From Roseomonas sp. (GTDB lineage: Bacteria > Pseudomonadota > Alphaproteobacteria > Acetobacterales > Acetobacteraceae), in contig DATCMG010000529.1 of NCBI GenBank assembly GCA_036563555.1, forward strand, positions 1 through 37,595: 37,595 nt of DNA, written 5' to 3'. Shown piece by piece: positions 3,873 to 29,710 of this stretch. Under the pieces are notes generated by a model that ran no database searches, was not told the origin of the DNA, and saw only the letters and a program-made list of their open reading frames with translations. The position numbers and the translations under genes are program-made. The number at the start of each line of letters is the position of its first letter. Positions within the stretch are counted from its first letter, which is position 1.

Positions 3873-4841
3873 TCACAGCCCCACCTTGCCCGCTGCATTG
3901 TCCACGAAGAGGCTTCCCCGTCGGATGTAGCCTCGCAGCACCGGCAGGGACTTGTGACGGCTCTGGTTCTGGATGTGCGCTTCCGGCACGCCGGCCCGCG
4001 CTGCCGTGGTGATGAAGCCGCTGCGCAGGCTGTGGCCGGCATAGGTCTCGGGCGGGTATCCGGCCGCCGCGACAGAGGCCTTCACGACTCGCGCGACATC
4101 CCGATCCGAGAGGCGCGCGGCGCCCAGTCCGCCATGCCGGTTGACGCTGCGGAAGACGGCGCCGGCCTCGATGCCGGCAGCCTTCAACCAAGCGCCCAGC
4201 GTCAGGACGGGGCAGGTCCGCTCGGAGCTGCCGAAGGGGATAGCTATCTCGGTACCCCGGCCTTCCTGGTCCGTCTTCGCACGGCGCAGCGTGAGGATCA
4301 GACCCTCGGGGACGAAGGCGACATCAGCAGCATCCAGCGCCACCAGCTCCGATCGGCGCAGCGCCGCGGCGAAACCGACCAGGAGCAGCGCCCGATCTCT
4401 CAACGGGCGCAGGCCGGGCCGCTTCTCCAGCTTATCCACGGCATCGCGGATCACGGTCGACACCGCCGCGTCCTTCTTCTGCGGCGCCGTACCATGGGTG
4501 CGCCGGATCCCCTTCATCGTCTCGCGGATGGCAGGGTGGCCGGTGTCGATCCGATGGCCGGCGAGACGGTGTGCCTGCCCAATCGCCACCAGGCGCATGG
4601 AGAGAGACGCAGCCTTGTGGGTGCTGGCCCGCGCGGCGAGGAAGGTGCCGACCGTCTCAGGCGAGGCGGGGAGGGCGGTGCGCCCAGCCTCATCGCACCA
4701 GGCAGCGAAGTCTACCCAGGCGGCGCGATAGGCGCGGCGCGTGTTCGCGGCCGAGGCCTCGCGCGCATAGGCCAGCGCCTCGTCCGACATGGCTGGTGCC
4801 GCAGGCATCAGCAAGGCTGACGAGGCCGTCACGAGAGACAT
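3873..4841 (-). CDS. tyrosine recombinase, Cre-like plasmid resolvase
   Basis: ATG 4841 after GGAG; SAM-like N-domain (SAANTRRAYRAAW..F..WC); catalytic RRSEL, AKTDQ, HSLRSG, RHKS, GYIR. Confidence 0.92.
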   Translation of the reverse strand: MSLVTASSALLMPAAPAMSDEALAYAREASAANTRRAYRAAWVDFAAWCDEAGRTALPASPETVGTFLAARASTHKAASLSMRLVAIGQAHRLAGHRIDTGHPAIRETMKGIRRTHGTAPQKKDAAVSTVIRDAVDKLEKRPGLRPLRDRALLLVGFAAALRRSELVALDAADVAFVPEGLILTLRRAKTDQEGRGTEIAIPFGSSERTCPVLTLGAWLKAAGIEAGAVFRSVNRHGGLGAARLSDRDVARVVKASVAAAGYPPETYAGHSLRSGFITTAARAGVPEAHIQNQSRHKSLPVLRGYIRRGSLFVDNAAGKVGL

Positions 4842-4866
4842 GCTGTTGGCTCCGTTTTCGCAGCTA

Positions 4867-5139
4867 TCAGAACTCAAAGCGACTTTGCCGGGGATCATGC
4901 ACCACGCCGCGGCGGCTGCCGGAGGGGGAGCCTTCCATCGTCCTGGGCTTCGCAGGAGGGAGGGAGGGCGCTGGCGTCGGCTCAGGCTCTGGCGCCTCAT
5001 CTTCGGCCGACACGGGGTCATGCAGGAGCTTCGCCGTCCAGGCGCGCCGTTGGGCGACATAGGCGGCTTGCTTCGCCTCCTGCTCCGCAAGCCATTCGGC
5101 GCTTACGGGGACGCGGGCTGGGGGGTCGGGCCGGTCCAT
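4867..5139 (-). CDS. small Pro-rich hypothetical protein, copy 1
   Basis: Clear paralog of 8715-8981 (WLxEQEAKQxAYxAxRRAW...VHDPRQxRFEF); frame conserved in both copies. Confidence 0.7.
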   Translation of the reverse strand: MDRPDPPARVPVSAEWLAEQEAKQAAYVAQRRAWTAKLLHDPVSAEDEAPEPEPTPAPSLPPAKPRTMEGSPSGSRRGVVHDPRQSRFEF

Positions 5140-8714: not shown

Positions 8715-8981
8715 TCAGAACTCAAAGCGCTTTTGCCTTGGATCATGCACCAGTCCGCGTGACCGCCGTGGCGGGGTGCCCTGCATCGTTGTGGGGCTCG
8801 AAGGTGCGCGGGGCGGTGATGGTGATGGATCCGGCGCCTCTTCCTCGTCCGGCACGGTGTCGTGCCCGAGCTTTTGCACCCAGGCACGCCTCTTTGCCGC
8901 ATAGGCTTCCTGCTTCGCCTCCTGCTCAGTAAGCCAGGCGGCGGTCGGTATCGTCGGCAGAGGCCTCTCGTGCTCGTCCAT
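8715..8981 (-). CDS. small Pro-rich hypothetical protein, copy 2
   Basis: Paralog of 4867-5139; shared DNA blocks TCAGAACTCAAAGCG, GGATCATGCACCA, CTTCGCCTCCTGCTC. Confidence 0.7.
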   Translation of the reverse strand: MDEHERPLPTIPTAAWLTEQEAKQEAYAAKRRAWVQKLGHDTVPDEEEAPDPSPSPPRAPSSPTTMQGTPPRRSRGLVHDPRQKRFEF

Positions 8982-11579: not shown

Positions 11580-12146
11580 ATGCGCTTTTCGTCCCATAAT
11601 AACCGCAGCGGCTATGCACCTCGCCCCGGTGTTGCCTGCCTCGATCAGCCTGGGCAGATCTCCAAGCTGATCGCTGCCCTCGACGGCACCGGCCATGCCT
11701 TTGCCCTGCCACTCTACCGAGCCGCCCTGGCGGGCGAACTGGCAATGGCGGCTCTCCTGCCCGGCGGGCGCGTGCCGACCCGCCTGTTGGACCACACTCG
11801 CCCGCCGACTGTGATCGTGGTCTCGGGCGATCCCGCTAATCCGACCGAAGCAGCCTCCCCTCCCGAGGCGTTCCCCCAGGCGCGTCGCCTGCTGGCTTGG
11901 TCCGCCTCCGTCATGCTCCATGCAACTGGCGGGAAGGAGGCTCATTATCGGGCGGTCGTGGCCGGGGCGAAAGCCTGGCGCCGGGTCCTGCTGATCGAGA
12001 CGGCGACCTCGCAGGAAGATGCATGGCTTGCCTTGGTAGAGGCTGAACGTGAGCGCCGCCTGGCTTCCGGCCGCGTCTTCCCGGCGGTCTGCATCAGCGC
12101 CCGTCCCCGCGGTGGCGTGCATCCCGTGTGGGGGACGCAGGCATGA
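11580..12146 (+). CDS. hypothetical protein
   Basis: RBS GGAGG; 188 aa; ATGA-coupled to the next gene. Confidence 0.7.
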   Translation: MRFSSHNNRSGYAPRPGVACLDQPGQISKLIAALDGTGHAFALPLYRAALAGELAMAALLPGGRVPTRLLDHTRPPTVIVVSGDPANPTEAASPPEAFPQARRLLAWSASVMLHATGGKEAHYRAVVAGAKAWRRVLLIETATSQEDAWLALVEAERERRLASGRVFPAVCISARPRGGVHPVWGTQA

Positions 12147-12328
12147 GCCCCGCCCCTATCCGCCTGACGCTTCTGCCGGACTTGCCGAATGCTGACGGCG
12201 AGCCGCGCGCCGGCTTGGTCCTGCCGCTCCCCCCTAACTCCACCTCCAGGCGCGCTGCCCTCGCGATCTTTCCCAGCGTGACTGCTGCACTGATGGAGAA
12301 GGTGCGACTGGAAGGGGGCGCGGCATGA
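12143..12328 (+). CDS. small hypothetical protein
   Basis: ATGA overlaps at both ends (12143-12146, 12325-12328); ends in GGAA. Confidence 0.65.
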   Translation: MSPAPIRLTLLPDLPNADGEPRAGLVLPLPPNSTSRRAALAIFPSVTAALMEKVRLEGGAA

Positions 12329-12663
12329 GCGGCTTGAGCGCTCCTCCTCCCTTCCGCCCTGTAGGCGATGTTTTAACCGAGGTGGTGCAGCGCGCGGCAG
12401 AAGCGGTGATGGTCGAGCGGGTATCCGTTCGGCCGATCCGTGCCGGGTTCGCCTATGCGTCAATCCGGCTGCGGGACGTGTCTCTCAACGGCATCGAGGC
12501 GACGCGCGATACCTCTGGCCGCGTCACCTTAAAGTGCCCGATGCAGCGCGATCGCCATGGCCGTGAGTGGCCGGTCTTCGCGCTGCAGCCCCGTGCCTTA
12601 GAGGCTGCCACCGCCGCGGTCGCCGCGGTCTGGCCGCCCCCCAATTGCGGGGGCGCCGGTTGA
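12325..12663 (+). CDS. SpoVG-like nucleic-acid-binding protein (possible SSB)
   Basis: Pattern AYASIRLRDVSLNGIEA...VTLKCPMQRDRHGREWPV resembles SpoVG beta-strand order; TTGA-coupled to the primase. Confidence 0.5.
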   Translation: MSGLSAPPPFRPVGDVLTEVVQRAAEAVMVERVSVRPIRAGFAYASIRLRDVSLNGIEATRDTSGRVTLKCPMQRDRHGREWPVFALQPRALEAATAAVAAVWPPPNCGGAG

Positions 12664-15600
12664 CCGAAACCATCACGATCTTCCGGACTACCCCGACCCC
12701 CCAGGGGGCGCCGCGCTACGCCACGAAGCAGTGGATGTGGTCGGCCTCCTCTGGGAGTTGGAGCAAGTTTTCCTACGATGCTGGTGCGCAATTCACGGCC
12801 GAGGAGCGCCAAGTGGCGTGCCTCGTGGATGTGGCTTCGGTGGTGGAGGACAGCCGTCACGACCCCCGCGTTTTTGTCGTGCGCGGCAAACTGCTGCCCG
12901 AGGCGCTCGCGGCTCTGGCGGAAAACCCGCAGTATCGGTTCCGGCGGGCCAAGAAGGTCAGCAAAACCGGCAAGGCGGCGACGCTGGCCGAGGTGGCCCG
13001 TCGCTGGGTGATGATCGACATCGACGGGTATCCCATGCGGGATTCCGCCGATCTCGCCACAGATCCGGAAGAGGTCATCGAAAGCGCTATCCGCGACCTG
13101 CTACCACCCTGCTTCCATGACGCGGCTTGCTTCTGGCAGCTCTCCAGCTCGGCAGGGTTCGTGGCCGGTGTCCTCAAGGTTCACTTGTTCTTCTGGCTCG
13201 CGGAACCGATCAGCAACGAGGACTTCAAGCTCTTCCTGCACGTTCATGCCCCCGGCGTGGACCGCGCTCCCTTCAACGCTGCTCAACCCCATTACATTGC
13301 GGATCCTGTCATTGAAGGTGGCCACGATCCGCTCCCCCGCCGGACAGGCTGGATCAAGGGGCTGGATGATGAGGTGACGCTCCCGGCACTGGACTTGGCC
13401 GCACTGCGGGCAGCCATCCATAAGCGCCGGGAAAAGGTCGCGACCGGCGCCGGCCTCGATCCCTTCGCTGCTCGCACTGTGGCGGGCGCGCTGGCGCTCC
13501 TGGGCGATGGTGAGGGGCGTGAGGGGTGGCACTCTCCGCTGCGCCGGGCCACCCTGCTTTATGCGTACCAGACTTCGCCCAAGAACCGAGACGACGATGC
13601 AGTAAAGGTCGCGTGCCGGGACGCGATCCAGGCTGCGGCAGAGCGCGAGCCGGGGCAGCACGCGGCGGCCGACCTCGCCCGGTTCGGCTCCGACGCTTAC
13701 TTGGATTCTTTGCTCGATGGCGCCTTCGCCTGGATCGATGCCACCAAGCGCGAGATGCCGGAAGGCGTTGTCCCCTATCACGAGGCGCCCGCACACAGCG
13801 TTGAGGACGCGCGCGGCGCCATCACTGGGCAGGTCGGGGATTTCCTGACGGCGGCGACGGCCTGGCACAACCTGCCCGAGGAGAAGCGGATTGATCCGCC
13901 TCAAGTTGGACTTGCGATCGAGGTTGGAGGTGGGAAGTCCACCGTCACCCGGGCCGAGGTAAGCCCCTGGTCCGAGCAGCAGGAAGCGGCGCGACTTCCC
14001 CACCGTGTTCTCTTCGGCGTGCCAACCGTGAAGCTGGGCGGCTTGGCTGAGCAGGCGGAATCGCACTTCGCGGACATGCCTGGCCGGAAGGTGGCCATCC
14101 ATCGCGGGCGCAGTCAGGTCGATCCCAAGAATCCGGATCAGAAAATGTGCGCCGATTTGGATGCCGTGAAGCTGGCGGTCTCGGCCGGAGAAAGTGTCGA
14201 AACCGCTGTGTGCGGCAGCGGCAAGGACGGGAAGCCCTCATGCCCCTTCCGGAAGGGCGAGAACCAATGCGGCTACTACCGCCAGCAGAAGGCGGTTGCC
14301 GAGGCGGATGTGGTGATCGCGGCGCACGAAGCAGTCTTCCATATGCCCGCTGGCGTGAAGAAGAACCTGGGCCTGGTCGTGATGGACGAGGCCTGGTGGC
14401 AAGACGGGGTGAAGACTGGCCGCTTTGTCTTCGTGGATGACCTGATCGACAGCGTGAAAATGTTCCCCGTGCTGAAGCATACGCCGGGCGGGCAGCAGAT
14501 TCCTGACCGGGAGGGAACGGGGGATCTCCTCCAATTCCGCGAGCAATTAGCGCATGTGCTGTCGGCGGCACCGGAGGGGTATCTGCAGGCCAGTGCTCTG
14601 CGCGCAGTCGGGCTGACCGCGGCCGATTGCGCTGCGGCAGCCGGACTGGAGTGGAAGCGCAAGCGGGAGAAACTGATGCGCCCGGGCATGTCGCCCGAGG
14701 ACCGCCGCGCTGCAGCCGCGGAGGCCGGCATCAACGCGCAGATCGTCCGCCTCGCGGGCATGTGGTCGACCCTGGAGGAGTTGCTGGCAAGCGGGGCGGA
14801 GGCCACCGGCCGTGCCGAGATGGCGTGGCAGCAGGACCGTGAAGGGAAAGACCGCTGGGCCATCTGCCTCAACACCTTGGACAAGGTGGTGGCGCCTGTC
14901 CTGGGCGTGCCGGTGCTGCTGCTGGACGCAACAATGCCAACGGGTCTCGTGCGGGCCTATCTGCCACGCCTTGAGGCAGCTCCTCCGGTGCGGGTGAAGG
15001 CTCCTTTTATGGAGGTGCGCCAGGTCCGCGGCGGCTGGGGGAAGACCACGCTCCTGCCTGGGCGGATCACGATCAAACTGGACGAGCACGCGCAACCCAA
15101 GGCCTACGCGCCCGGGGATACGACACCCCGCCCCCTGCCCTCCACGCTGGCCGAGTTGCGGGATTTTGTGGCGGGAGAGACCCGTGGCGAGCCCGCCCTC
15201 GTCGTCACCTACCAGGACGCCGAAGCCGCCTTCGCTGGGCTGTCAGGGGTGGAGACGGCACACTTCAACGACGTCGCCGGTAAGGATGGGTGGAAGGATG
15301 TCCGGTATCTTTTCGTCATCGGCCGTCCCCGCCCCCGTTCCGACCAGGTGCGGGTGCTGGCAGCCGCCCTGACGGGTGAGCCGGTCGAAGTCGCGGAGAG
15401 CCACAAGGAAACGCGCGGCGTCCGGCTGGTGGACGGGAAAAGCGGCACTGTCGAGGTCCGCGCTTATGCCAACCCGGCCGCTGAGGCGGTGTCCGCCGCC
15501 ATCACCGACGCCGAGGTGATCCAGGCGATCGGCCGCGCCAGGGGCATCAACCGCACCGCGTTCAACCCTGTCCGGGTCTGGATCCTGGCGGACGTGGTGA

Positions 15601-16289
15601 CACCCTTGATCGTGGATGAGCTGCTGGATTGGCGCGATATCGCCCCTTCGGTGGTGGAGCGGATGGCCTGCCGGGGGATCTTCCTGACGAGCCCAGCTGA
15701 TGCCGCCAAGGCTTACTCCGACCTGTTCCCGACTATTGAAGCCGCGAAGAAGGCGCTGCAGCGGGGAGGAGTCGCTAAGGCCGATTTCGGGGACAATCCC
15801 CTAAGAATATCTCTTCTTAGGAGAATGTCCCCGAAATCCCCTCTGAGGTTCACCTACCGCCCCCCTGGAAGGGGACAGCAGACGCGCCAGGGCTGGGCGC
15901 GGCCCGAGATGGATCCGGAGGATGTCTGGCGCTTCCTGGAAGATCACCTGGGAGAGATGGCCGTCTTCACCCCGGAGGAACCGGAGCCTGAGCCTCCTGA
16001 GCCGCCCCAGCCGCCGGGAGGGCAGCCCTGCCCCTCTGACGAACCGCCGGAAGGGTCACCAGAGCCTGCTGAGGCGCCTGGAGGGGTCGGGAGCCCTGTC
16101 GGGGTGCCGATCCGGGTGCCAGCGGGCTCCGTGGTGCTGGATGAGGCTGAGTTCGAGCCGGCGGGCGGGTTCTGTGCGGTCCCGGGTGGGGTGCCCTTGG
16201 GCCGGTTCCCGGAGGATCCCCCGGTCACGCTGCGACCACACAACACGCCCAAATCAGAGGGATTCAACGAACGTCATGCGTGGAAATAG
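12660..16289 (+). CDS. AEP primase fused to SF2 (DinG/XPD-like) helicase; putative replication protein
   Basis: AEP motifs WVMIDIDG, SSS...KVHLFFWL, VDRAPF; helicase GGGKST, VVMDE, LLLDAT, QAIGRAR; four Cys (KMC, AVC, SCPF, QCGY) between motifs I and II; TTG start coupled to the upstream stop. Confidence 0.8.
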   Translation: MTETITIFRTTPTPQGAPRYATKQWMWSASSGSWSKFSYDAGAQFTAEERQVACLVDVASVVEDSRHDPRVFVVRGKLLPEALAALAENPQYRFRRAKKVSKTGKAATLAEVARRWVMIDIDGYPMRDSADLATDPEEVIESAIRDLLPPCFHDAACFWQLSSSAGFVAGVLKVHLFFWLAEPISNEDFKLFLHVHAPGVDRAPFNAAQPHYIADPVIEGGHDPLPRRTGWIKGLDDEVTLPALDLAALRAAIHKRREKVATGAGLDPFAARTVAGALALLGDGEGREGWHSPLRRATLLYAYQTSPKNRDDDAVKVACRDAIQAAAEREPGQHAAADLARFGSDAYLDSLLDGAFAWIDATKREMPEGVVPYHEAPAHSVEDARGAITGQVGDFLTAATAWHNLPEEKRIDPPQVGLAIEVGGGKSTVTRAEVSPWSEQQEAARLPHRVLFGVPTVKLGGLAEQAESHFADMPGRKVAIHRGRSQVDPKNPDQKMCADLDAVKLAVSAGESVETAVCGSGKDGKPSCPFRKGENQCGYYRQQKAVAEADVVIAAHEAVFHMPAGVKKNLGLVVMDEAWWQDGVKTGRFVFVDDLIDSVKMFPVLKHTPGGQQIPDREGTGDLLQFREQLAHVLSAAPEGYLQASALRAVGLTAADCAAAAGLEWKRKREKLMRPGMSPEDRRAAAAEAGINAQIVRLAGMWSTLEELLASGAEATGRAEMAWQQDREGKDRWAICLNTLDKVVAPVLGVPVLLLDATMPTGLVRAYLPRLEAAPPVRVKAPFMEVRQVRGGWGKTTLLPGRITIKLDEHAQPKAYAPGDTTPRPLPSTLAELRDFVAGETRGEPALVVTYQDAEAAFAGLSGVETAHFNDVAGKDGWKDVRYLFVIGRPRPRSDQVRVLAAALTGEPVEVAESHKETRGVRLVDGKSGTVEVRAYANPAAEAVSAAITDAEVIQAIGRARGINRTAFNPVRVWILADVVTPLIVDELLDWRDIAPSVVERMACRGIFLTSPADAAKAYSDLFPTIEAAKKALQRGGVAKADFGDNPLRISLLRRMSPKSPLRFTYRPPGRGQQTRQGWARPEMDPEDVWRFLEDHLGEMAVFTPEEPEPEPPEPPQPPGGQPCPSDEPPEGSPEPAEAPGGVGSPVGVPIRVPAGSVVLDEAEFEPAGGFCAVPGGVPLGRFPEDPPVTLRPHNTPKSEGFNERHAWK
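15783..15838. repeat. long inverted repeat inside the rep gene (origin candidate)
   Basis: GATTTCGGGGACAATCCCCTAAGAA-TATCTC-TTCTTAGGAGAATGTCCCCGAAATC; 23/25 match; AT-rich centre. Confidence 0.8.
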
Positions 16290-16563: not shown

Positions 16564-16929
16564 ATGGTTAAGCCCGATGCCGTACCTGCCAACGTCCTCA
16601 TGCCGACTGGCCGAAACTTGCCCAGTGGATGGGCAGCCTTCATTGCGCTGCGCCGACCGGTTGAGGAACCGGCGCCGCGCCGGCATGGCAACACGATCCA
16701 TGGGCGCTACAGTCGCGAGGGGATCGCTACCCGGCGCCAACATAGAGTTCTGTGGCAATGGCTGCGGGACGGCTGCCGAGGCCCCTCACCGCTGCCGCGG
16801 CCGATTGGCTGGAGAGGCTTTCGCGGCACCTTCCGCGCGCGCGCGAGGCCAGGGCGAGAACCTTGGCTGAGACTGAGGCCGACCAGGGCCAGGGCTGGCA
16901 CGAGCCGCCGCGGCCTCGGCGGGACCTGA
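16564..16929 (+). CDS. protein with HGGxSTG-family C-terminal motif
   Basis: HGNTIHGRYSREGIATRR resembles the GNxNxxKHGxYxxE tail of HGGxSTG proteins found beside terminases; Cys/HGG core absent. Confidence 0.4.
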   Translation: MVKPDAVPANVLMPTGRNLPSGWAAFIALRRPVEEPAPRRHGNTIHGRYSREGIATRRQHRVLWQWLRDGCRGPSPLPRPIGWRGFRGTFRARARPGREPWLRLRPTRARAGTSRRGLGGT

Positions 16930-17297
16930 TCGGGCGACCATCGTCTTTCTCGCCCGAAATGGAAGCGCGCATCGTGGACAGGCTGGCAGACGGGGTGCCA
17001 CTGGCCAGGATGTGCCGGGAACCGGGGATGCCGGATCCTGAGACCGTGCGGCGCTGGCGGCGCTCTAACCCCAGCTTTGATGCCCTGTTCCACGTCGCCC
17101 AGGTCGAGGGGTGGCGCGAACTGGCGCAGCGGGTCGTGGAGGACGTGGAGGCGGCGCTGGCGGCCGGCGCATCGGTAGAGCGGGCGCGATTGATGTTCGA
17201 TGCGCGGCGATGGCTGTTAGCGCGCCAGGCGCCGGAGTTTTTCGGGTCCGGGCGGGCGCGGCGTCGCCGCCAGCGGGAGATGGATCGCTCAGCCTGA
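16758..17297 (+). CDS. terS: phage terminase small subunit-like protein (Sf6-type)
   Basis: GRPSSFSPEMEARIVDRLADGVPLARMCREPGMPDPETVRRW...F...ARLMFDARRWLLARQAPEFFG. Confidence 0.8.
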   Translation: MAAGRLPRPLTAAAADWLERLSRHLPRAREARARTLAETEADQGQGWHEPPRPRRDLIGRPSSFSPEMEARIVDRLADGVPLARMCREPGMPDPETVRRWRRSNPSFDALFHVAQVEGWRELAQRVVEDVEAALAAGASVERARLMFDARRWLLARQAPEFFGSGRARRRRQREMDRSA

Positions 17298-17375
17298 GTG
17301 GGGTTTCCCGCAAGTTGCAGGAAACTCGTCTGGAGGGTCGCCCCGGCGGCGGGCGAGAGTTTGAAAAGCCGATAC

Positions 17376-17434
17376 GAATTAAGTCGTAACGAATGGCCAT
17401 TCTGTAGAATTAGATTAGAATTAAGTCGGAACGA
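17376..17434 (+). repeat. AT-rich direct repeat pair
   Basis: GAATTAAGTCGTAACGA (17376-17392) and GAATTAAGTCGGAACGA (17418-17434), 16/17 identical, 42-bp period; partial GAATTA between them. Confidence 0.75.
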
Positions 17435-22760: not shown

Positions 22761-23423
22761 ATGGGAAAGATACTGGTTTCAGGCGGAATCAAGGGGGGGA
22801 TCGGCAAGTCCACCCTGGCGGCGAACCTGGCGGTTCTAGCGGCGCGTGTCGGCAAGGAAGTGCTGCTGGTGGATGCGGACCCGCAGGAGACCACTGCTAC
22901 CTGGGCGGCAGCCCGTGGTGAGCAGCCGGGGGAGCTGGCGCCGGTCACAACCGTGACCATTGTCGGTAAGCAGATCCGGGAAGAGCTGAAGCGCCTAGCC
23001 GACAAGTACGATGTGGTGATCGTGGATGCGGGGGCCCGGGACACCAGCACCCAGCGCGCGGCCCTCTCCGTCGCTAACCTAGTCTTGCTCCCCTTCCCTC
23101 CCCGCGGGCCGGACCTCTGGACCTTGGACGCTGTGGCCCAGACAGTCAGCGATATCCGCACCATCAACGAGGGGCTACGGGCTGTGGCCTTCGTAAACCG
23201 GGCGGACCCGATCGGCAGTGACAATGCCGAAGCGGAAGCAGCCTTTGCAGAGCATGCTGAGGTAATCGAGGCGGCCCCAATACGGGTCGGAAACCGGAAG
23301 GGGATCGCCACCAGCCACTTGATGGGGCTGGCAGCCTGCGAGGCCCAACGCCCGGACGGCAAGGCCGTAGCGGAGTTAGATGCACTCTTTCGGTATGCCT
23401 TTGATACCACCAATGCACCGTAG
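22761..23423 (+). CDS. parA: ParA family partition ATPase (short, type Ib)
   Basis: Deviant Walker A KGGIGKST; LLVDADPQ; YDVVIVDAG; no N-terminal HTH. Confidence 0.92.
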   Translation: MGKILVSGGIKGGIGKSTLAANLAVLAARVGKEVLLVDADPQETTATWAAARGEQPGELAPVTTVTIVGKQIREELKRLADKYDVVIVDAGARDTSTQRAALSVANLVLLPFPPRGPDLWTLDAVAQTVSDIRTINEGLRAVAFVNRADPIGSDNAEAEAAFAEHAEVIEAAPIRVGNRKGIATSHLMGLAACEAQRPDGKAVAELDALFRYAFDTTNAP

Positions 23424-23444
23424 AAGTGCCTTAGAGGTGCATAG
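23387..23444. repeat. parS-like repeat cluster 2
   Basis: Second copy of CTTTCGGTAT-N18-GCACCGTAGA plus TAGAGGTG, at the parA 3' end. Confidence 0.55.
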
Positions 23445-23702
23445 ATGACCAAGCCCAGCAAGTTCAGTCGGCCACAGCGCGAGCCTACCTCAGCCGAGGT
23501 CGAGCGGGTGATCGCCAAAGCTGAGACCCGAGATGATCCCGCCGTCGTGGCGGCACCTGAGGCAGAGGTGCGCTTCACCATGGTTCTGCCGTCGAGCATG
23601 TCGGAGCGGGTGGACAAGGCCAGAAAGGGAGCAGGTGGCATGGCCCGGCTAGCCTGGATCCGGCTAGCTATTGCCGAGAAGCTGAACCGAGACGGTGTGT
23701 AA
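23445..23702 (+). CDS. ParG-like ribbon-helix-helix centromere-binding protein
   Basis: Flexible N-terminus, then VRFTMVLPSSMSERVD...RLAWIRLAIAEKL (RHH); directly after parA. Confidence 0.75.
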   Translation: MTKPSKFSRPQREPTSAEVERVIAKAETRDDPAVVAAPEAEVRFTMVLPSSMSERVDKARKGAGGMARLAWIRLAIAEKLNRDGV

Positions 23703-27120: not shown

Positions 27121-27609
27121 TCATGCCTCCTCTAGACGGTGGTCGTATTCGGCTCCCAGCAAAGCCCCCAAGTCGTGCCCGAGGTTGGCAGCGATGAAGT
27201 CAGCCGCGCGCCGGCTGTAGAGGCCCGCGTCACGCAGGCCTCGTGACGTCGGTTCGTGGTTCATGTCGTATTCGGCGGCCCGTCGCGCATAAGTCGCCGC
27301 CAGGGCGATCACCAGCAGCGCGTCCGTGATGGTCTCCGGCTCCGTCTCCAGTGCGGCGTCCTCGGCGGCGAAGAAGGCGCTTGCGGCCTCGCTCCACAGG
27401 CTGCGGAGGCGGTCTTCCTCAACCTTCGGTCCCTCGCACGCTGCCCACATTTCTTCTGCGGCGAGCATCGCCTGATCCAAGGCAGGGAGGCGGCAGACGA
27501 TCTCCTCGACCCTGCCGATGCGCTGGGGGCTGGCGGGGGCGGGGATGGGGGGCTCCGCGATGGCGGCACCCCCGATGGTGGCCAACAGGCCGCGGCGAGC
27601 GGGGCTCAC
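27121..27609 (-). CDS. twin-arginine-leader hypothetical protein (paralog 3)
   Basis: MSPARRGLL; GTGA-coupled to the upstream gene; PETITD motif. Confidence 0.7.
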   Translation of the reverse strand: MSPARRGLLATIGGAAIAEPPIPAPASPQRIGRVEEIVCRLPALDQAMLAAEEMWAACEGPKVEEDRLRSLWSEAASAFFAAEDAALETEPETITDALLVIALAATYARRAAEYDMNHEPTSRGLRDAGLYSRRAADFIAANLGHDLGALLGAEYDHRLEEA

Positions 27610-28040
27610 GGATGAGGCTCCAGGGGCTTGCCCGCTAGGTCCTCGGCAAGACTCCAGAGCAGGGCATCCTCCGCGGACAGCGCCTCGCCGGCCAGGTTGG
27701 TCTGCACGAGCGTCATCGCGACTTCGGCCTTCGCCACTTTCCCAGCGGGAGTGAGGGCCGGCGTGTTGATGACGACATTCAGCGGAGCGTGCTGCGCGCT
27801 GGCCGCCTCAACTTGGACATGGTGCTGTCTGTCCGCCTCTGCCTTGTCTTCGGCCTCCTCCGCTGCGCACTGCTTCTCGAAGGAGGCGTTCCACTCAGCC
27901 TCGCGCGCCATGTACTGCGCGCAGGCTTCCAGCAACGTGGCGTCGGGATTGGGAGCGGCGGCACCAGCAGAGGCAGGCACCACGGGGACGGCGGCCAGTG
28001 CAGCAACACTGCCTAGCAGACTGCGACGGGCGGCCTTCAT
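27606..28040 (-). CDS. twin-arginine-leader hypothetical protein (paralog 2)
   Basis: MKAARRSLL; PNPDATLLEAC; PALTPAGKVAKA; ATGA coupling. Confidence 0.75.
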   Translation of the reverse strand: MKAARRSLLGSVAALAAVPVVPASAGAAAPNPDATLLEACAQYMAREAEWNASFEKQCAAEEAEDKAEADRQHHVQVEAASAQHAPLNVVINTPALTPAGKVAKAEVAMTLVQTNLAGEALSAEDALLWSLAEDLAGKPLEPHP

Positions 28041-28447
28041 GCTCCGCCCTCCAGCCGCAGCAGGTCGCTGACCAGTTGCCAAGCCCAATCCCCGGCCGGG
28101 CAGTCCCGCGGATTCTCGGTTCCGTCCGTGTTTTGCGCTTCGGCTTTTGCGGCGCGAGCTTTGGCGACCATGCCGGCGAGCGTCACGGGGACGGCTGCGG
28201 CGATGGCATCTCGTGTGCGCTCGTAGGCGAGCCAGAGAGGGTCGTCCTCTTGCTCCAGGTGGCCGCCATAGGCGCAGTAAGCCTCGCGGTTGGCGTTATG
28301 CTCCGCGCAGATGCGGATCAACTCCGCGTCCCGGTTCGGCGCCGGCCTTCTGTCCAGCGTGTCGGCGGTGGCAGCCTGCGCTGTCAGCACGGCGCCCGGG
28401 GTGATGGCGAGGACGGCCAAGCCGCCCAGCAGGTTCCGGCGGCTCAT
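28037..28447 (-). CDS. twin-arginine-leader hypothetical protein (paralog 1)
   Basis: MSRRNLL; PNRDAELIRIC; PVTLAGMVAKA; ATGA coupling. Confidence 0.75.
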   Translation of the reverse strand: MSRRNLLGGLAVLAITPGAVLTAQAATADTLDRRPAPNRDAELIRICAEHNANREAYCAYGGHLEQEDDPLWLAYERTRDAIAAAVPVTLAGMVAKARAAKAEAQNTDGTENPRDCPAGDWAWQLVSDLLRLEGGA

Positions 28448-28770
28448 GCGCGGGCACTCCCGAACACGCTGCCGAAGCCGCGCAGATTGGCGGGGATGGG
28501 GTCGCCGTTGCGGCGGTAGGCCGCGCGCATCTGGCGGGCGCTGGGCCGGTGCACCACTACGGGGCGGCGATCAGGGGAGAGGGTAATGGGCTGGGCGCTC
28601 GCCTCGTCGGCGTCCTCCTCGCCGTCTTCGTCGGGCTCCAGATCCGGATCCCAATCCATCGCATCGAGCTGGGCGATGGCGCGGGTGATAATGTCCTCCA
28701 GTTCGGCCCGGCGCCGGGAACGTGCTGCAGCATCGCTCGACGTGCTATTCACTCTCTTAGCCTCTCGCAT
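28444..28770 (-). CDS. acidic hypothetical protein of mobile elements
   Basis: IITRAIAQLDAMDWDPDLEPDEDGEED motif; coupled to the downstream gene. Confidence 0.7.
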   Translation of the reverse strand: MREAKRVNSTSSDAAARSRRRAELEDIITRAIAQLDAMDWDPDLEPDEDGEEDADEASAQPITLSPDRRPVVVHRPSARQMRAAYRRNGDPIPANLRGFGSVFGSARA

Positions 28771-28914
28771 GGGTGTTGGCCCTTGCTCGGGGTCAGGAAG
28801 GGGAGAGGGGACAGCCTCTCCCCGACCGACCTTGCCCGCCTGTTGGAGCGGACTGTTGCCAGGGATGCCGCCCTGGCTCGGGTGCCCGGATCACCCGCCG
28901 GGCGCGGGGTCTGG

Positions 28915-29223
28915 TCAGGGCGCGAGGGCGCCTTGTCGGCGGGCCTGGAAGGCGGCCTCGGCCTGATCGAATGGGGTAGGGGAGGGAGCGGCCTCGCGGA
29001 TCATCTGCACCCGCACTCGGCCCCGGGGCTGCCAGTAGTCTCCCCGCATCAGGGCGACCCAGCCGCCCAGCTTCTGCGCGGCGAGGTGGGCGATGATCCG
29101 CTCCATCTCGGCCGCGTCCGGCTCGCCATGACGTCCCAGCAGGACGTGGCGGCCATCGCTCCCCAGGAGGATGAAGGTCTCCCCCTGGGGTGAGGATCTT
29201 CTGGCCTGGCGCTCCATGGTCAT
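28915..29223 (-). CDS. hypothetical protein
   Basis: 102 aa ORF with RBS GAGG in the leftward operon. Confidence 0.6.
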   Translation of the reverse strand: MTMERQARRSSPQGETFILLGSDGRHVLLGRHGEPDAAEMERIIAHLAAQKLGGWVALMRGDYWQPRGRVRVQMIREAAPSPTPFDQAEAAFQARRQGALAP

Positions 29224-29230
29224 GGCGGCC

Positions 29231-29623
29231 TCAGATCGCCAGAGCAGCCATGGCAGCCTGCGCGGCGGCCAGCCGGCGCTCAGCCTTGCGCAGGGCGGCG
29301 CGGGCCTTGTTCAGGGCACCCATGGCGGCGGCCTGGGCTGCGCGGCGATCAGCGGCCGGGCGCTGATTAGCCATGCCCAGACGGCGGCAGGCGGCGCGGT
29401 ACAGAGCGGCCTCAACCCGGTGCTGCGACATGGCGCCGACGAGTTCCCGCTCCGCTGCCTCGGCGCGCTCGGTGGCGCTCGGTGCGGCGCCAGCCTCGAT
29501 CAGCAGGGGCCGGCCGCGCATCACGGCGACGCTGCGAAGGATGGCGTCCGTCACCAAGCCATCGGTGAACAGGTCAGCCTCACGGGCGACGGCGGGGTTC
29601 AGGGCGGGGTGGAGGGAGAGCAT
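29231..29623 (-). CDS. Ala-rich helical hypothetical protein
   Basis: ATG 29623 after AGGA; first gene divergent from the Xre regulator. Confidence 0.6.
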   Translation of the reverse strand: MLSLHPALNPAVAREADLFTDGLVTDAILRSVAVMRGRPLLIEAGAAPSATERAEAAERELVGAMSQHRVEAALYRAACRRLGMANQRPAADRRAAQAAAMGALNKARAALRKAERRLAAAQAAMAALAI

Positions 29624-29631
29624 GGGGTAGT

Positions 29632-29710
29632 TCCTGTTGAGCCGAAATAGTTGATGTGCTACCAAATAGCTCACCCAAAGAGGGGTGTCAACCAATACGG
29701 CTCAAAAGGA
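29632..29710. promoter_or_regulatory. divergent promoter/operator switch
   Basis: 23-bp inverted repeat (29632-29654 / 29688-29710, 19/23); central palindrome TGTGCTA-N5-TAGCTCA; minus-strand TTGACA-N17-TATTTG. Confidence 0.65.

Follow-up and report, generated by a model that had tools for sequence, protein, structure and literature searches.

A predicted primase–XPD/DinG-type helicase fusion of an alphaproteobacterial mobile element, with a palindrome inside its own gene

Introduction

Can a mobile element carry an initiator, a helicase, a primase and an origin within one gene? This question is raised by a locus of Roseomonas sp. (contig DATCMG010000529.1, assembly GCA_036563555.1), where a gene at 12660..16289 of the forward strand encodes a protein of 1,209 amino acids which an earlier note, written from the DNA letters alone, had read as an archaeo-eukaryotic primase (AEP) fused to a four-cysteine DinG/XPD-like superfamily 2 (SF2) helicase. 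The window studied here is the entire contig (C188; 37,595 nucleotides), which is longer than any other in its fragmented assembly (N50 6.1 kb). XPD/DinG helicases serve as repair, transcription and defence enzymes, and origins located inside genes are familiar from lambda O and from N15 repA, whose product has a C-terminal origin-binding domain.

Here we confirm that the protein has four parts, namely a divergent AEP, a PriCT-like helical bundle, an XPD/DinG-family SF2 helicase and a predicted C-terminal helix-turn-helix (HTH), and we describe a feature beyond the earlier note, a C-terminal DNA-binding domain accompanied by an intragenic palindrome. From sequence comparison and structural models we propose that the protein is probably a self-contained replication initiator of a mobile element, binding the palindrome inside its own gene.

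Results

The gene, present in one copy in its genome, starts with a TTG codon overlapping the preceding stop codon; this start at 12660 is supported by homologue alignments, which begin at residues 1–5. Full-length homologues (41–87% identity) belong for the most part to Acetobacteraceae and other alphaproteobacteria. Searches of Pfam, NCBIfam and, with the single sequence, the PDB using the whole protein found no match, and the ESM Atlas returned only unnamed or ResIII/DEAD clusters, as leads without alignment.

The helicase motifs claimed for the protein were all found. Walker A (GGGKST, residues 423–428) lies in the first part of helicase domain 1 (HD1; 13791..14108) and MDE is at residue 575, while DAT (motif III, residue 756) and QAIGRAR (motif VI, residue 955) fall in a segment comprising motif III and helicase domain 2 (HD2; 14895..15644), delimited by motif positions and elements of an AlphaFold2 (AF2) model. 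Conservation is high at K426 (120 of 121 homologues), E577 (121/121) and D756 (115/121), and in motif VI at Q955 (112/121), R959 (111/121) and R961 (113/121). The AF2 model of residues 1–1105 (pLDDT 87.5) has a two-lobed SF2 fold and not that of an SF3 (D5) helicase of the P4 alpha/pRN1 type. DinG, CasDinG, XPD and TFIIH complexes containing XPD filled the 39 best-ranked Foldseek rows (E down to 3e-13), and the top VIA row was CasDinG (Z 18.9, rmsd 7.2, 414 residues aligned). VIA aligned 403–494 residues to XPD/DinG/DdmD-type chains versus 243–308 to other SF2 chains, the XPD/DinG-type alignments being long but of high rmsd (5–9 Å). The arch insert of that family has its counterpart in an alpha/beta insert of ~160 residues after motif II, at the XPD/DinG arch position (14409..14894, from AF2 elements), and hhalign against a profile of 28 DinG/YoaA proteins gave a probability of 96.9 (E 1.9e-10). 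Sequence and model together support a helicase of the XPD/DinG type, which by family membership would be expected to move 5'-to-3'. The Q motif before Walker A is a feature of XPD/DinG helicases, and it counts against this assignment that the family consensus has no conserved glutamine or evident Q motif there.

Exactly four cysteines lie between motifs I and II (C497, C518, C528 and C537), in an insert at 14109..14303 predicted to be an iron-sulfur (Fe-S) domain, and all four columns are cysteine in each of the 121 homologues, out of 152, which cover the region; the commonest pattern is C-x20-C-x2..19-C-x5-C. The best PDB sequence match of the family profile was E. coli DinG (E 0.0026), over the cysteine motif, with C518, C528 and C537 aligning with its Fe-S ligands C194, C199 and C205. 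It is quite likely that the four cysteines bind a 4Fe-4S cluster rather than zinc, in line with the cluster that the earlier note had raised as a possibility. A zinc site, which would leave the remainder of the model standing, appears unlikely: the compactness of the insert (~65 residues), a first cysteine whose distance from the GR motif exceeds that in DinG by 10–15 residues and a CxxC spacing of the second and third cysteines in some members would all suit zinc, but the insert occupies the place of the DinG Fe-S domain in HD1 and three of its cysteines align with DinG ligands, including the C-x5-C-x-aromatic end.

Following the helicase, residues 996–1104 (15645..15971) form, from AF2 elements, a predicted HTH with a beta wing, in which a predicted recognition helix (residues 1026–1035) carries E1027, K1030 and K1031. 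Between the codons of this helix and those of the beta hairpin lies a 56-bp imperfect palindrome (15783-15838), with 25-bp arms, of which 23 positions are paired, around an AT-rich centre. It encodes a linker (residues 1039–1058); AF2 leaves two stretches unplaced, of which this linker is the longer. No inverted repeat of the 37.6-kb contig is stronger than the palindrome (fold z -5.2), and the corresponding palindromes of the Roseivivax plasmid, pSR-5 (50 kb read) and pCMU02 likewise rank first on their replicons. The palindrome occurs once in the assembly, and its centre is among the top 0.1% of the 24-nt windows of the contig in AT-richness. No sigma-70 promoter or terminator pattern was found at the palindrome, and an Rfam match there to a miRNA-like hairpin (E 0.18, far under the cut-off) was set aside as chance.

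The palindrome is a general property of the family. In 60 distinct loci representing all primase types, searched 60–135 codons after motif VI (11 ORF hits without a parsed motif VI and 1 truncated ORF were left out), the best repeat had a median score of 14 versus 6.5 in 402 same-gene control windows. Scores of at least 12 were reached at 43/60 loci versus 1/402 control windows, the repeat exceeded all of its own controls in 57/60, and the palindrome lay at codons ~+79 to +110 after motif VI. Among 35 aligned loci, two-sided compensatory changes were seen in 22 of 23 pairs, and 87% of cells were paired, versus 68% after shuffling and at most 49% after sliding. The anatomy is constant: from the outside in, an outer arm of variable sequence with CA as its last bases is followed by a mismatch of 2–4 nt, then by an inner arm, either CCCTA or GCTATTATA, and by a centre that is rich in AT and not palindromic, the outer arms being 26 to 34 nt apart. 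The arms occur in 8 codon registers (49 loci parsed), therefore the constraint acts on the DNA. The N15 repA, CyRepA1 and Xfas53 primase genes contain no repeats of this kind. Very probably the protein binds the palindrome as a dimer. In the Toprim-clade palindromes (L074-type) the inner arms share ATTATA with N15 telRL (L051 776-831), at equal distance from the centre, a likeness dismissed as coincidental since the centre of the palindrome is not palindromic.

The residues K1030-K1031 of the recognition helix track the four arm bases that precede CA. Over 56 loci (the 60 minus L050, L097, L098 and L102; with manual setting of the arm register in L019, L077 and L095 and of the centre in L008), KK was found with GGGA in 25/25 and non-KK with non-GGGA in 31/31. 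The other pairings were RQ with GTGA, RK with CGGA, RM with CGAA, QK (mostly) and AK with GCGA, KL or KS with GGGT, and EH, DH or ER with C-rich arms. For all four arm bases either K1030 or K1031 ranked first of 231 columns; E1027, which shares one helix face with them, followed closely for three, and the next-best adjacent residue pair made 7 errors in the 56 loci. Phylogenetically independent pairs agreed in ~14/14 cases on the helicase tree (p 1e-4; the L089 dipeptide set by hand) and in 6/6 on the linked-cassette tree (p 0.03).

Fixed rules were then applied to newly fetched loci, 41 of which were kept after dropping 9 duplicates, 1 truncated locus, 5 gapped at the helix and 1 lacking an arm. 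A palindrome was found in 37/41, 4 being without a well-paired arm, versus 0/236 controls; two of the 41 (L006 and L091) had been seen previously, and the script chose another repeat for L091. The KK–GGGA rule was right in 34/37, and RK–CGGA held in 5/6, RM–CGAA in 4/5 and EH/ER–CCCC in 3/3. RQ–GTGA held in 1/4 by script, the three misses being register slips by eye. Confidence in this code is lowered by its having been found post hoc, by the distance of only ~30 nt between helix and arm codons, hence part of the covariation is linkage, and by the kinship of many held-out loci; linkage and kinship inflate the counts. Identical residue–base pairs recur in separate clades.

The N-terminal part (residues 1–245; 12660..13394) carries the primase motifs claimed for it. 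D120 and D122 of motif I (WVMIDID) are kept in 63/63 and 62/63 homologues (one E), motif II has S162-x-S164 (SSSAG at 162, with S164 nearly fixed) followed at position 175 by H in 54/63 and R in 9/63, and D201 of motif III is kept in 61/63. In some AEP families the motif II histidine may be Arg, Lys or Gln (PMC5862659). PHROG 16950, "DNA primase", matches residues 36–273 (E 7e-30), and Pfam has no match to this part. The AF2 model of residues 1–370 (pLDDT 93) placed AEPs in all of the top 15 Foldseek ranks, among them S-2L PrimPol, LigD polymerase, human PrimPol, poxvirus D5/E5 and PriS. These matches had E values of at least 0.02, none reaching E 0.001, and the best VIA match, S-2L PrimPol, had a Z of 5.8 (rmsd 4.6, 154 residues aligned), both of which are weak and tell against the assignment. 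So does the region after D201, where Q209 (62/63), H/I/L211 and Y/F212 are conserved with no conserved Arg, Q209 and Y212 occupying, in our own reading of the motifs, the place of the nucleotide-binding Arg of other AEPs. The invariant Arg of motif IV of the PrimPol-PV1 supergroup, placed by our reading of its description (PMC5862659), is absent after D201, and as regards the named Prim-Pol clade families of Iyer 2005 (Z1568, DR0530 and bll5242), the protein matches no Pfam or NCBIfam model. Motifs and consistent, if weak, fold evidence support a divergent AEP, and none of the outcomes that the earlier note gave as refuting its reading came about.

A helical bundle (residues 246–365; 13395..13754, from AF2 secondary structure) lies where PriCT domains sit, and by position may be PriCT/PriX-like; VIA gave Z 5.1 to PriX (5of3_C) and ColE2 Rep (3vw4_B), amid many unrelated helical rows. 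The protein ends in the Pro/Glu-rich tail noted earlier (residues 1105–1209, 40% Pro+Glu; 15972..16286), the sequence of which is unconserved. Phage contigs of IMG/VR (L033-L045) carry the same AEP subfamily without the helicase of the fusion protein, often with a small-terminase-like gene ~6 kb downstream.

Among 1.84 billion proteins, a profile of 44 homologues found 2,728 representatives at E<=1e-30, a count which includes primase-only and helicase-only matches. Members of the helicase family occur in prophages and islands of alphaproteobacteria as well as on their plasmids. The 36 homologues examined that have another kind of long N-terminus comprise 23 with Toprim_3/DUF7146, 9 with Prim-Pol, 2 with nothing but PriCT_2 and 2 with none of these, and on a FastTree tree of 76 helicase cores, which came with long-branch warnings, the primase label changes at least 13 times (minimum 3), close sisters differing in type. 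Fusion to unrelated primases has served as the criterion for calling VirE, DUF927 and DUF3987 replicative (PMC4889955, PMC5862659). In IMG/VR prophage contigs the gene occupies the replication slot, preceded by a serine integrase and an excisionase and followed by a methyltransferase and a terminase, and one homologue is in a tRNA-Gly island (L013). The islands at L013 6233-20810 and L012 19687-23144 carry the replicase plus genes matching a phage DNA-ejection family, with no capsid match. A profile search of 401 genomes of the class matched 44, mostly to the Toprim columns of the profile, with ~8 others spanning the helicase. With the C-terminal domain profile, matches were found in 34/400 sampled genomes of the host's family.

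By tblastn the family was found on 17 PLSDB records, seven of which were inspected; the records of the small carrier plasmids give no replicon type or Rep gene. On the circular R. mucosa p6 and the Roseivivax plasmid no other Rep was found by annotation, Pfam or NCBIfam. Rep families were not found among the scanned ORFs of the window, p6, p546-7 and the Roseivivax plasmid, and the annotations of pSR-5 (50,000 of 53,768 bases) and pNYY1_6 contain no Rep. Known alphaproteobacterial plasmid Reps comprise RepABC, RepA, RepB, DnaA-like, RepL, RepQ, RepY and RepW (PMC9025767). The fusion protein itself matches no curated Rep family of Pfam or NCBIfam and, as the earlier reading required, no close match to a characterised Rep family was found.

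A primase fused to an SF2 helicase is not in itself new: replicases of this kind are already known (PMC4889955, PMC5862659, PMC9978351). What remains of the "distinct all-in-one replicase architecture" that the earlier note had seen is the XPD/DinG Fe-S type of the helicase. Among primase-SF2 proteins, N15 RepA and PY54 RepA are established initiators and PAU gp68 is a candidate (PMC4889955). N15 RepA likewise joins an N-terminal primase to an SF2 helicase in one polypeptide and is confirmed as replicative (PMC4889955), but its primase is of the Toprim type, its motif I–II span has 91 residues and 2 cysteines versus 156 and 4 in the fusion protein, its hhalign probability is 1.2 and its best in-gene repeat scores 7.5; it was rejected as a family member on the short span and the missing profile match. 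CyRepA1 (Slr7037 of Synechocystis pSYSA) is a primase–helicase fusion needed for plasmid replication (PMC9978351). It differs in having 87 residues and 1 cysteine between motifs I and II, a match confined to the Walker A region (hhalign probability 17.5), a repeat score of 6 with no intragenic palindrome and control by an upstream RNA pair, and it too was rejected, on its short span without the four cysteines. The fusion protein would work like N15 RepA and CyRepA1 but belongs to neither family, nor does it have the short motif I–II span without an Fe-S insert of UL9-like initiators.

The replication proteins pRN1 ORF904 and BIP-1/BPP-1 combine an AEP, a helical domain, a helicase and a winged helix in one protein, with a required stem-loop origin alongside (PMC4234260), and the fusion protein as predicted has a similar layout. 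The ORF904 helicase, however, is a hexameric SF3 enzyme moving 3'-5', and the pRN1 stem-loop (~100 nt) is 3' of the gene and not within DNA-binding-domain codons. E. coli DinG, archaeal XPD and CasDinG share with the fusion protein two RecA lobes, a cysteine insert bounded by motifs Ia and II and, beyond motif II, an arch-like insert, consistent with the XPD/DinG layout of two HD1 inserts, Fe-S and arch (PMC10450177). Identity to this XPD/Rad3/DinG group is just 10–13%, with no match to Pfam DEAD_2 or Helicase_C_2 and no evident Q motif, and the fusion protein differs in joining a primase and a DNA-binding domain to the helicase and in occupying the replication slot of mobile elements. The all3500 family (pVOG1685/9714) and PAU gp68 combine an AEP with a remote SF2 helicase and are predicted to be replicative (PMC5862659, PMC4889955); they are described as UL9-like or unassigned, the excerpts of their descriptions mentioning no Fe-S insert, and may overlap with the family studied here. 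Gp23 of Xylella phage Xfas53 (PHROG 16950) belongs to the same AEP subfamily (33% identity over 240 residues) but is annotated as a P4-family primase, and the match stops near residue 270, so its helicase differs. In searches limited to open-access papers, no primase–XPD/DinG replicase and no such palindrome was described.

Discussion

In the model we propose, the outer arms of the palindrome would be bound by the C-terminal HTHs of two protomers, whose predicted Fe-S XPD/DinG-type motors would melt the AT-rich centre, perhaps by way of a hairpin, and then move 5'-3'. The AEP-like domain would then lay a primer, to be extended by a host polymerase; both priming and this hand-over are conjectural. 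A 5'-3' motor with an attached primase is arranged as in a lagging-strand primosome, and for this reason the protein may also travel with the replication fork. Because the site lies between the codons of the recognition helix and those of the wing, specificity and target would be inherited together, and the incompatibility type could shift by co-change of two residues and about four base pairs, the N-terminal primase being freely exchanged. The model parallels that proposed for pRN1, with its stem-loop origin just downstream of the gene (PMC4234260).

There is a good likelihood that the palindrome is an origin rather than only an operator. Were the replicase to bind it as an autoregulatory operator, a transcription roadblock or a copy-control site, the origin would lie elsewhere, and covariation, which speaks for recognition and not for function, would be equally expected; cumulative GC-skew minima fall within ~0.3 kb of the palindrome on only 2/6 replicons, and downstream, at 17371-17434, there are two copies of an AT-rich 22-bp repeat. 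We nevertheless regard this as improbable, since an AT-rich centre with a fixed two-arm geometry suits melting by a bound helicase, pRN1 has its tested origin in a stem-loop beside a primase–helicase–winged-helix gene (PMC4234260) and the site is single-copy in the assembly.

It is less probable still that the protein is an accessory helicase of mobile elements, acting in repair, recombination or counter-defence like IEE, CasDinG or DdmD. XPD/DinG members are repair or defence enzymes (PMC10450177), the AEP–SF2 fusion IEE works in insertion sequence excision (PMC9943667), and truncated and primase-less copies of the gene occur, as might be expected of an accessory enzyme. Interchange with Toprim primases, the position in the replication slot, a self-encoded cognate site and the failure to find a further Rep on p6 or the Roseivivax plasmid all speak for an initiator. 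It is highly improbable that a tyrosine recombinase or protelomerase targets the palindrome, which would then lie inside the gene by chance: the palindrome has the 56-bp length of N15 telRL, its inner arms are TATA-rich and the contig encodes a tyrosine recombinase, but its centre is not palindromic, the outer-arm spacing varies, palindromes are also present in prophages with serine integrases and the arm bases follow the helix of the fusion protein.

Some observations fit poorly with a self-sufficient initiator acting through a C-terminal HTH. The HTH has no significant library match (I-TevI HTH, E 0.74; Pfam I-TevI_DNA-bd in 2/40 members), and the pNYY1_6 helicase lacks a primase. On pCMU02 the gene (L049 20711-22327) is reduced to HD2 and the C-terminal domain, with the palindrome kept, and adjoins an unannotated ORF of 259 residues (105-884) which is winged-helix Rep-like by eye; with a truncated gene and a second HTH-like ORF, pCMU02 was no longer counted in support of a sole replicase. 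This plasmid also carries two flagellin genes and FlbT genes.

We are mildly inclined to see in these loci a large, undescribed class of bacterial replicon, with an XPD-family Fe-S initiator and fork motor, an origin in the codons of its own DNA-binding domain and a two-residue code. If so, a replicative XPD/DinG member with a primase would lengthen the short list of replicative helicase types and provide a one-gene system for studying the role of an Fe-S cluster at an origin. The gene is a candidate replicon for small alphaproteobacterial plasmids left Rep-less by current typing. Helix–palindrome covariation would constitute a rare natural protein–DNA recognition code that could give compatible vector sets; incompatibility groups would become readable from sequence, and orthogonal single-gene replicons designable for alphaproteobacteria.

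Additional observations

The contig (65.7% GC versus 69.1% for the assembly overall) reads, from its gene content, as a plasmid-like mobile element, with a tyrosine recombinase, ParA, toxin-antitoxin pairs, a small-terminase-like gene and, at the right-hand end, part of a transposase; neither a tRNA nor terminal repeats were found in the window. Read depth in run X1, possibly the source sample, was ~9 over long pieces of this contig and ~6 over another contig, values that do not give a copy number. Upstream of the fusion gene lie three small forward-strand ORFs (11580-12146, ~12143-12328 and 12325-12663), which by tblastn accompany it in related loci and plasmids and have no match in Pfam or PHROG. 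ParA and a small gene, presumably its partition partner, form a module at 22761..23702 (+, by library match); ParA is also present on related plasmids. The tyrosine recombinase, a resolvase or integrase (3873..5090, -; PF00589, E 2e-11), is common to related elements, where its homologues adjoin the gene.

Downstream of the fusion gene is the small-terminase-like gene (16752..17297, +; PF20901, E 1.8e-21; PHROG 1482), and a terminase small subunit is also found 3' of the homologue on R. mucosa plasmids. The families differ, being Sf6-like in the window and Terminase_2 on p6 (L047 7280-8047), and capsid genes were not found on the plasmids that carry replicase and small terminase; a small terminase without capsid genes suggests phage-satellite ancestry or packaging piracy. 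The AT-rich 22-bp repeat noted above lies 3' of the terminase-like gene, its two copies at a spacing of 42, and is accompanied by the sole sigma-70-like site of that region.

Two alike small ORFs of ~90 residues, at 4867-5139 (-), immediately upstream of the tyrosine recombinase, and 8715-8981 (-), have no Pfam match and share the pattern WLxEQEAKQxAY...RRAW...K L...Pro-rich...VHDPRQxRFEF. At 27121-29695 (-) there are six small Ala-rich ORFs in a row, matching no family, several of which begin with TAT-like "RRxLL" leaders; three of the six have homologues near the replicase in related elements.

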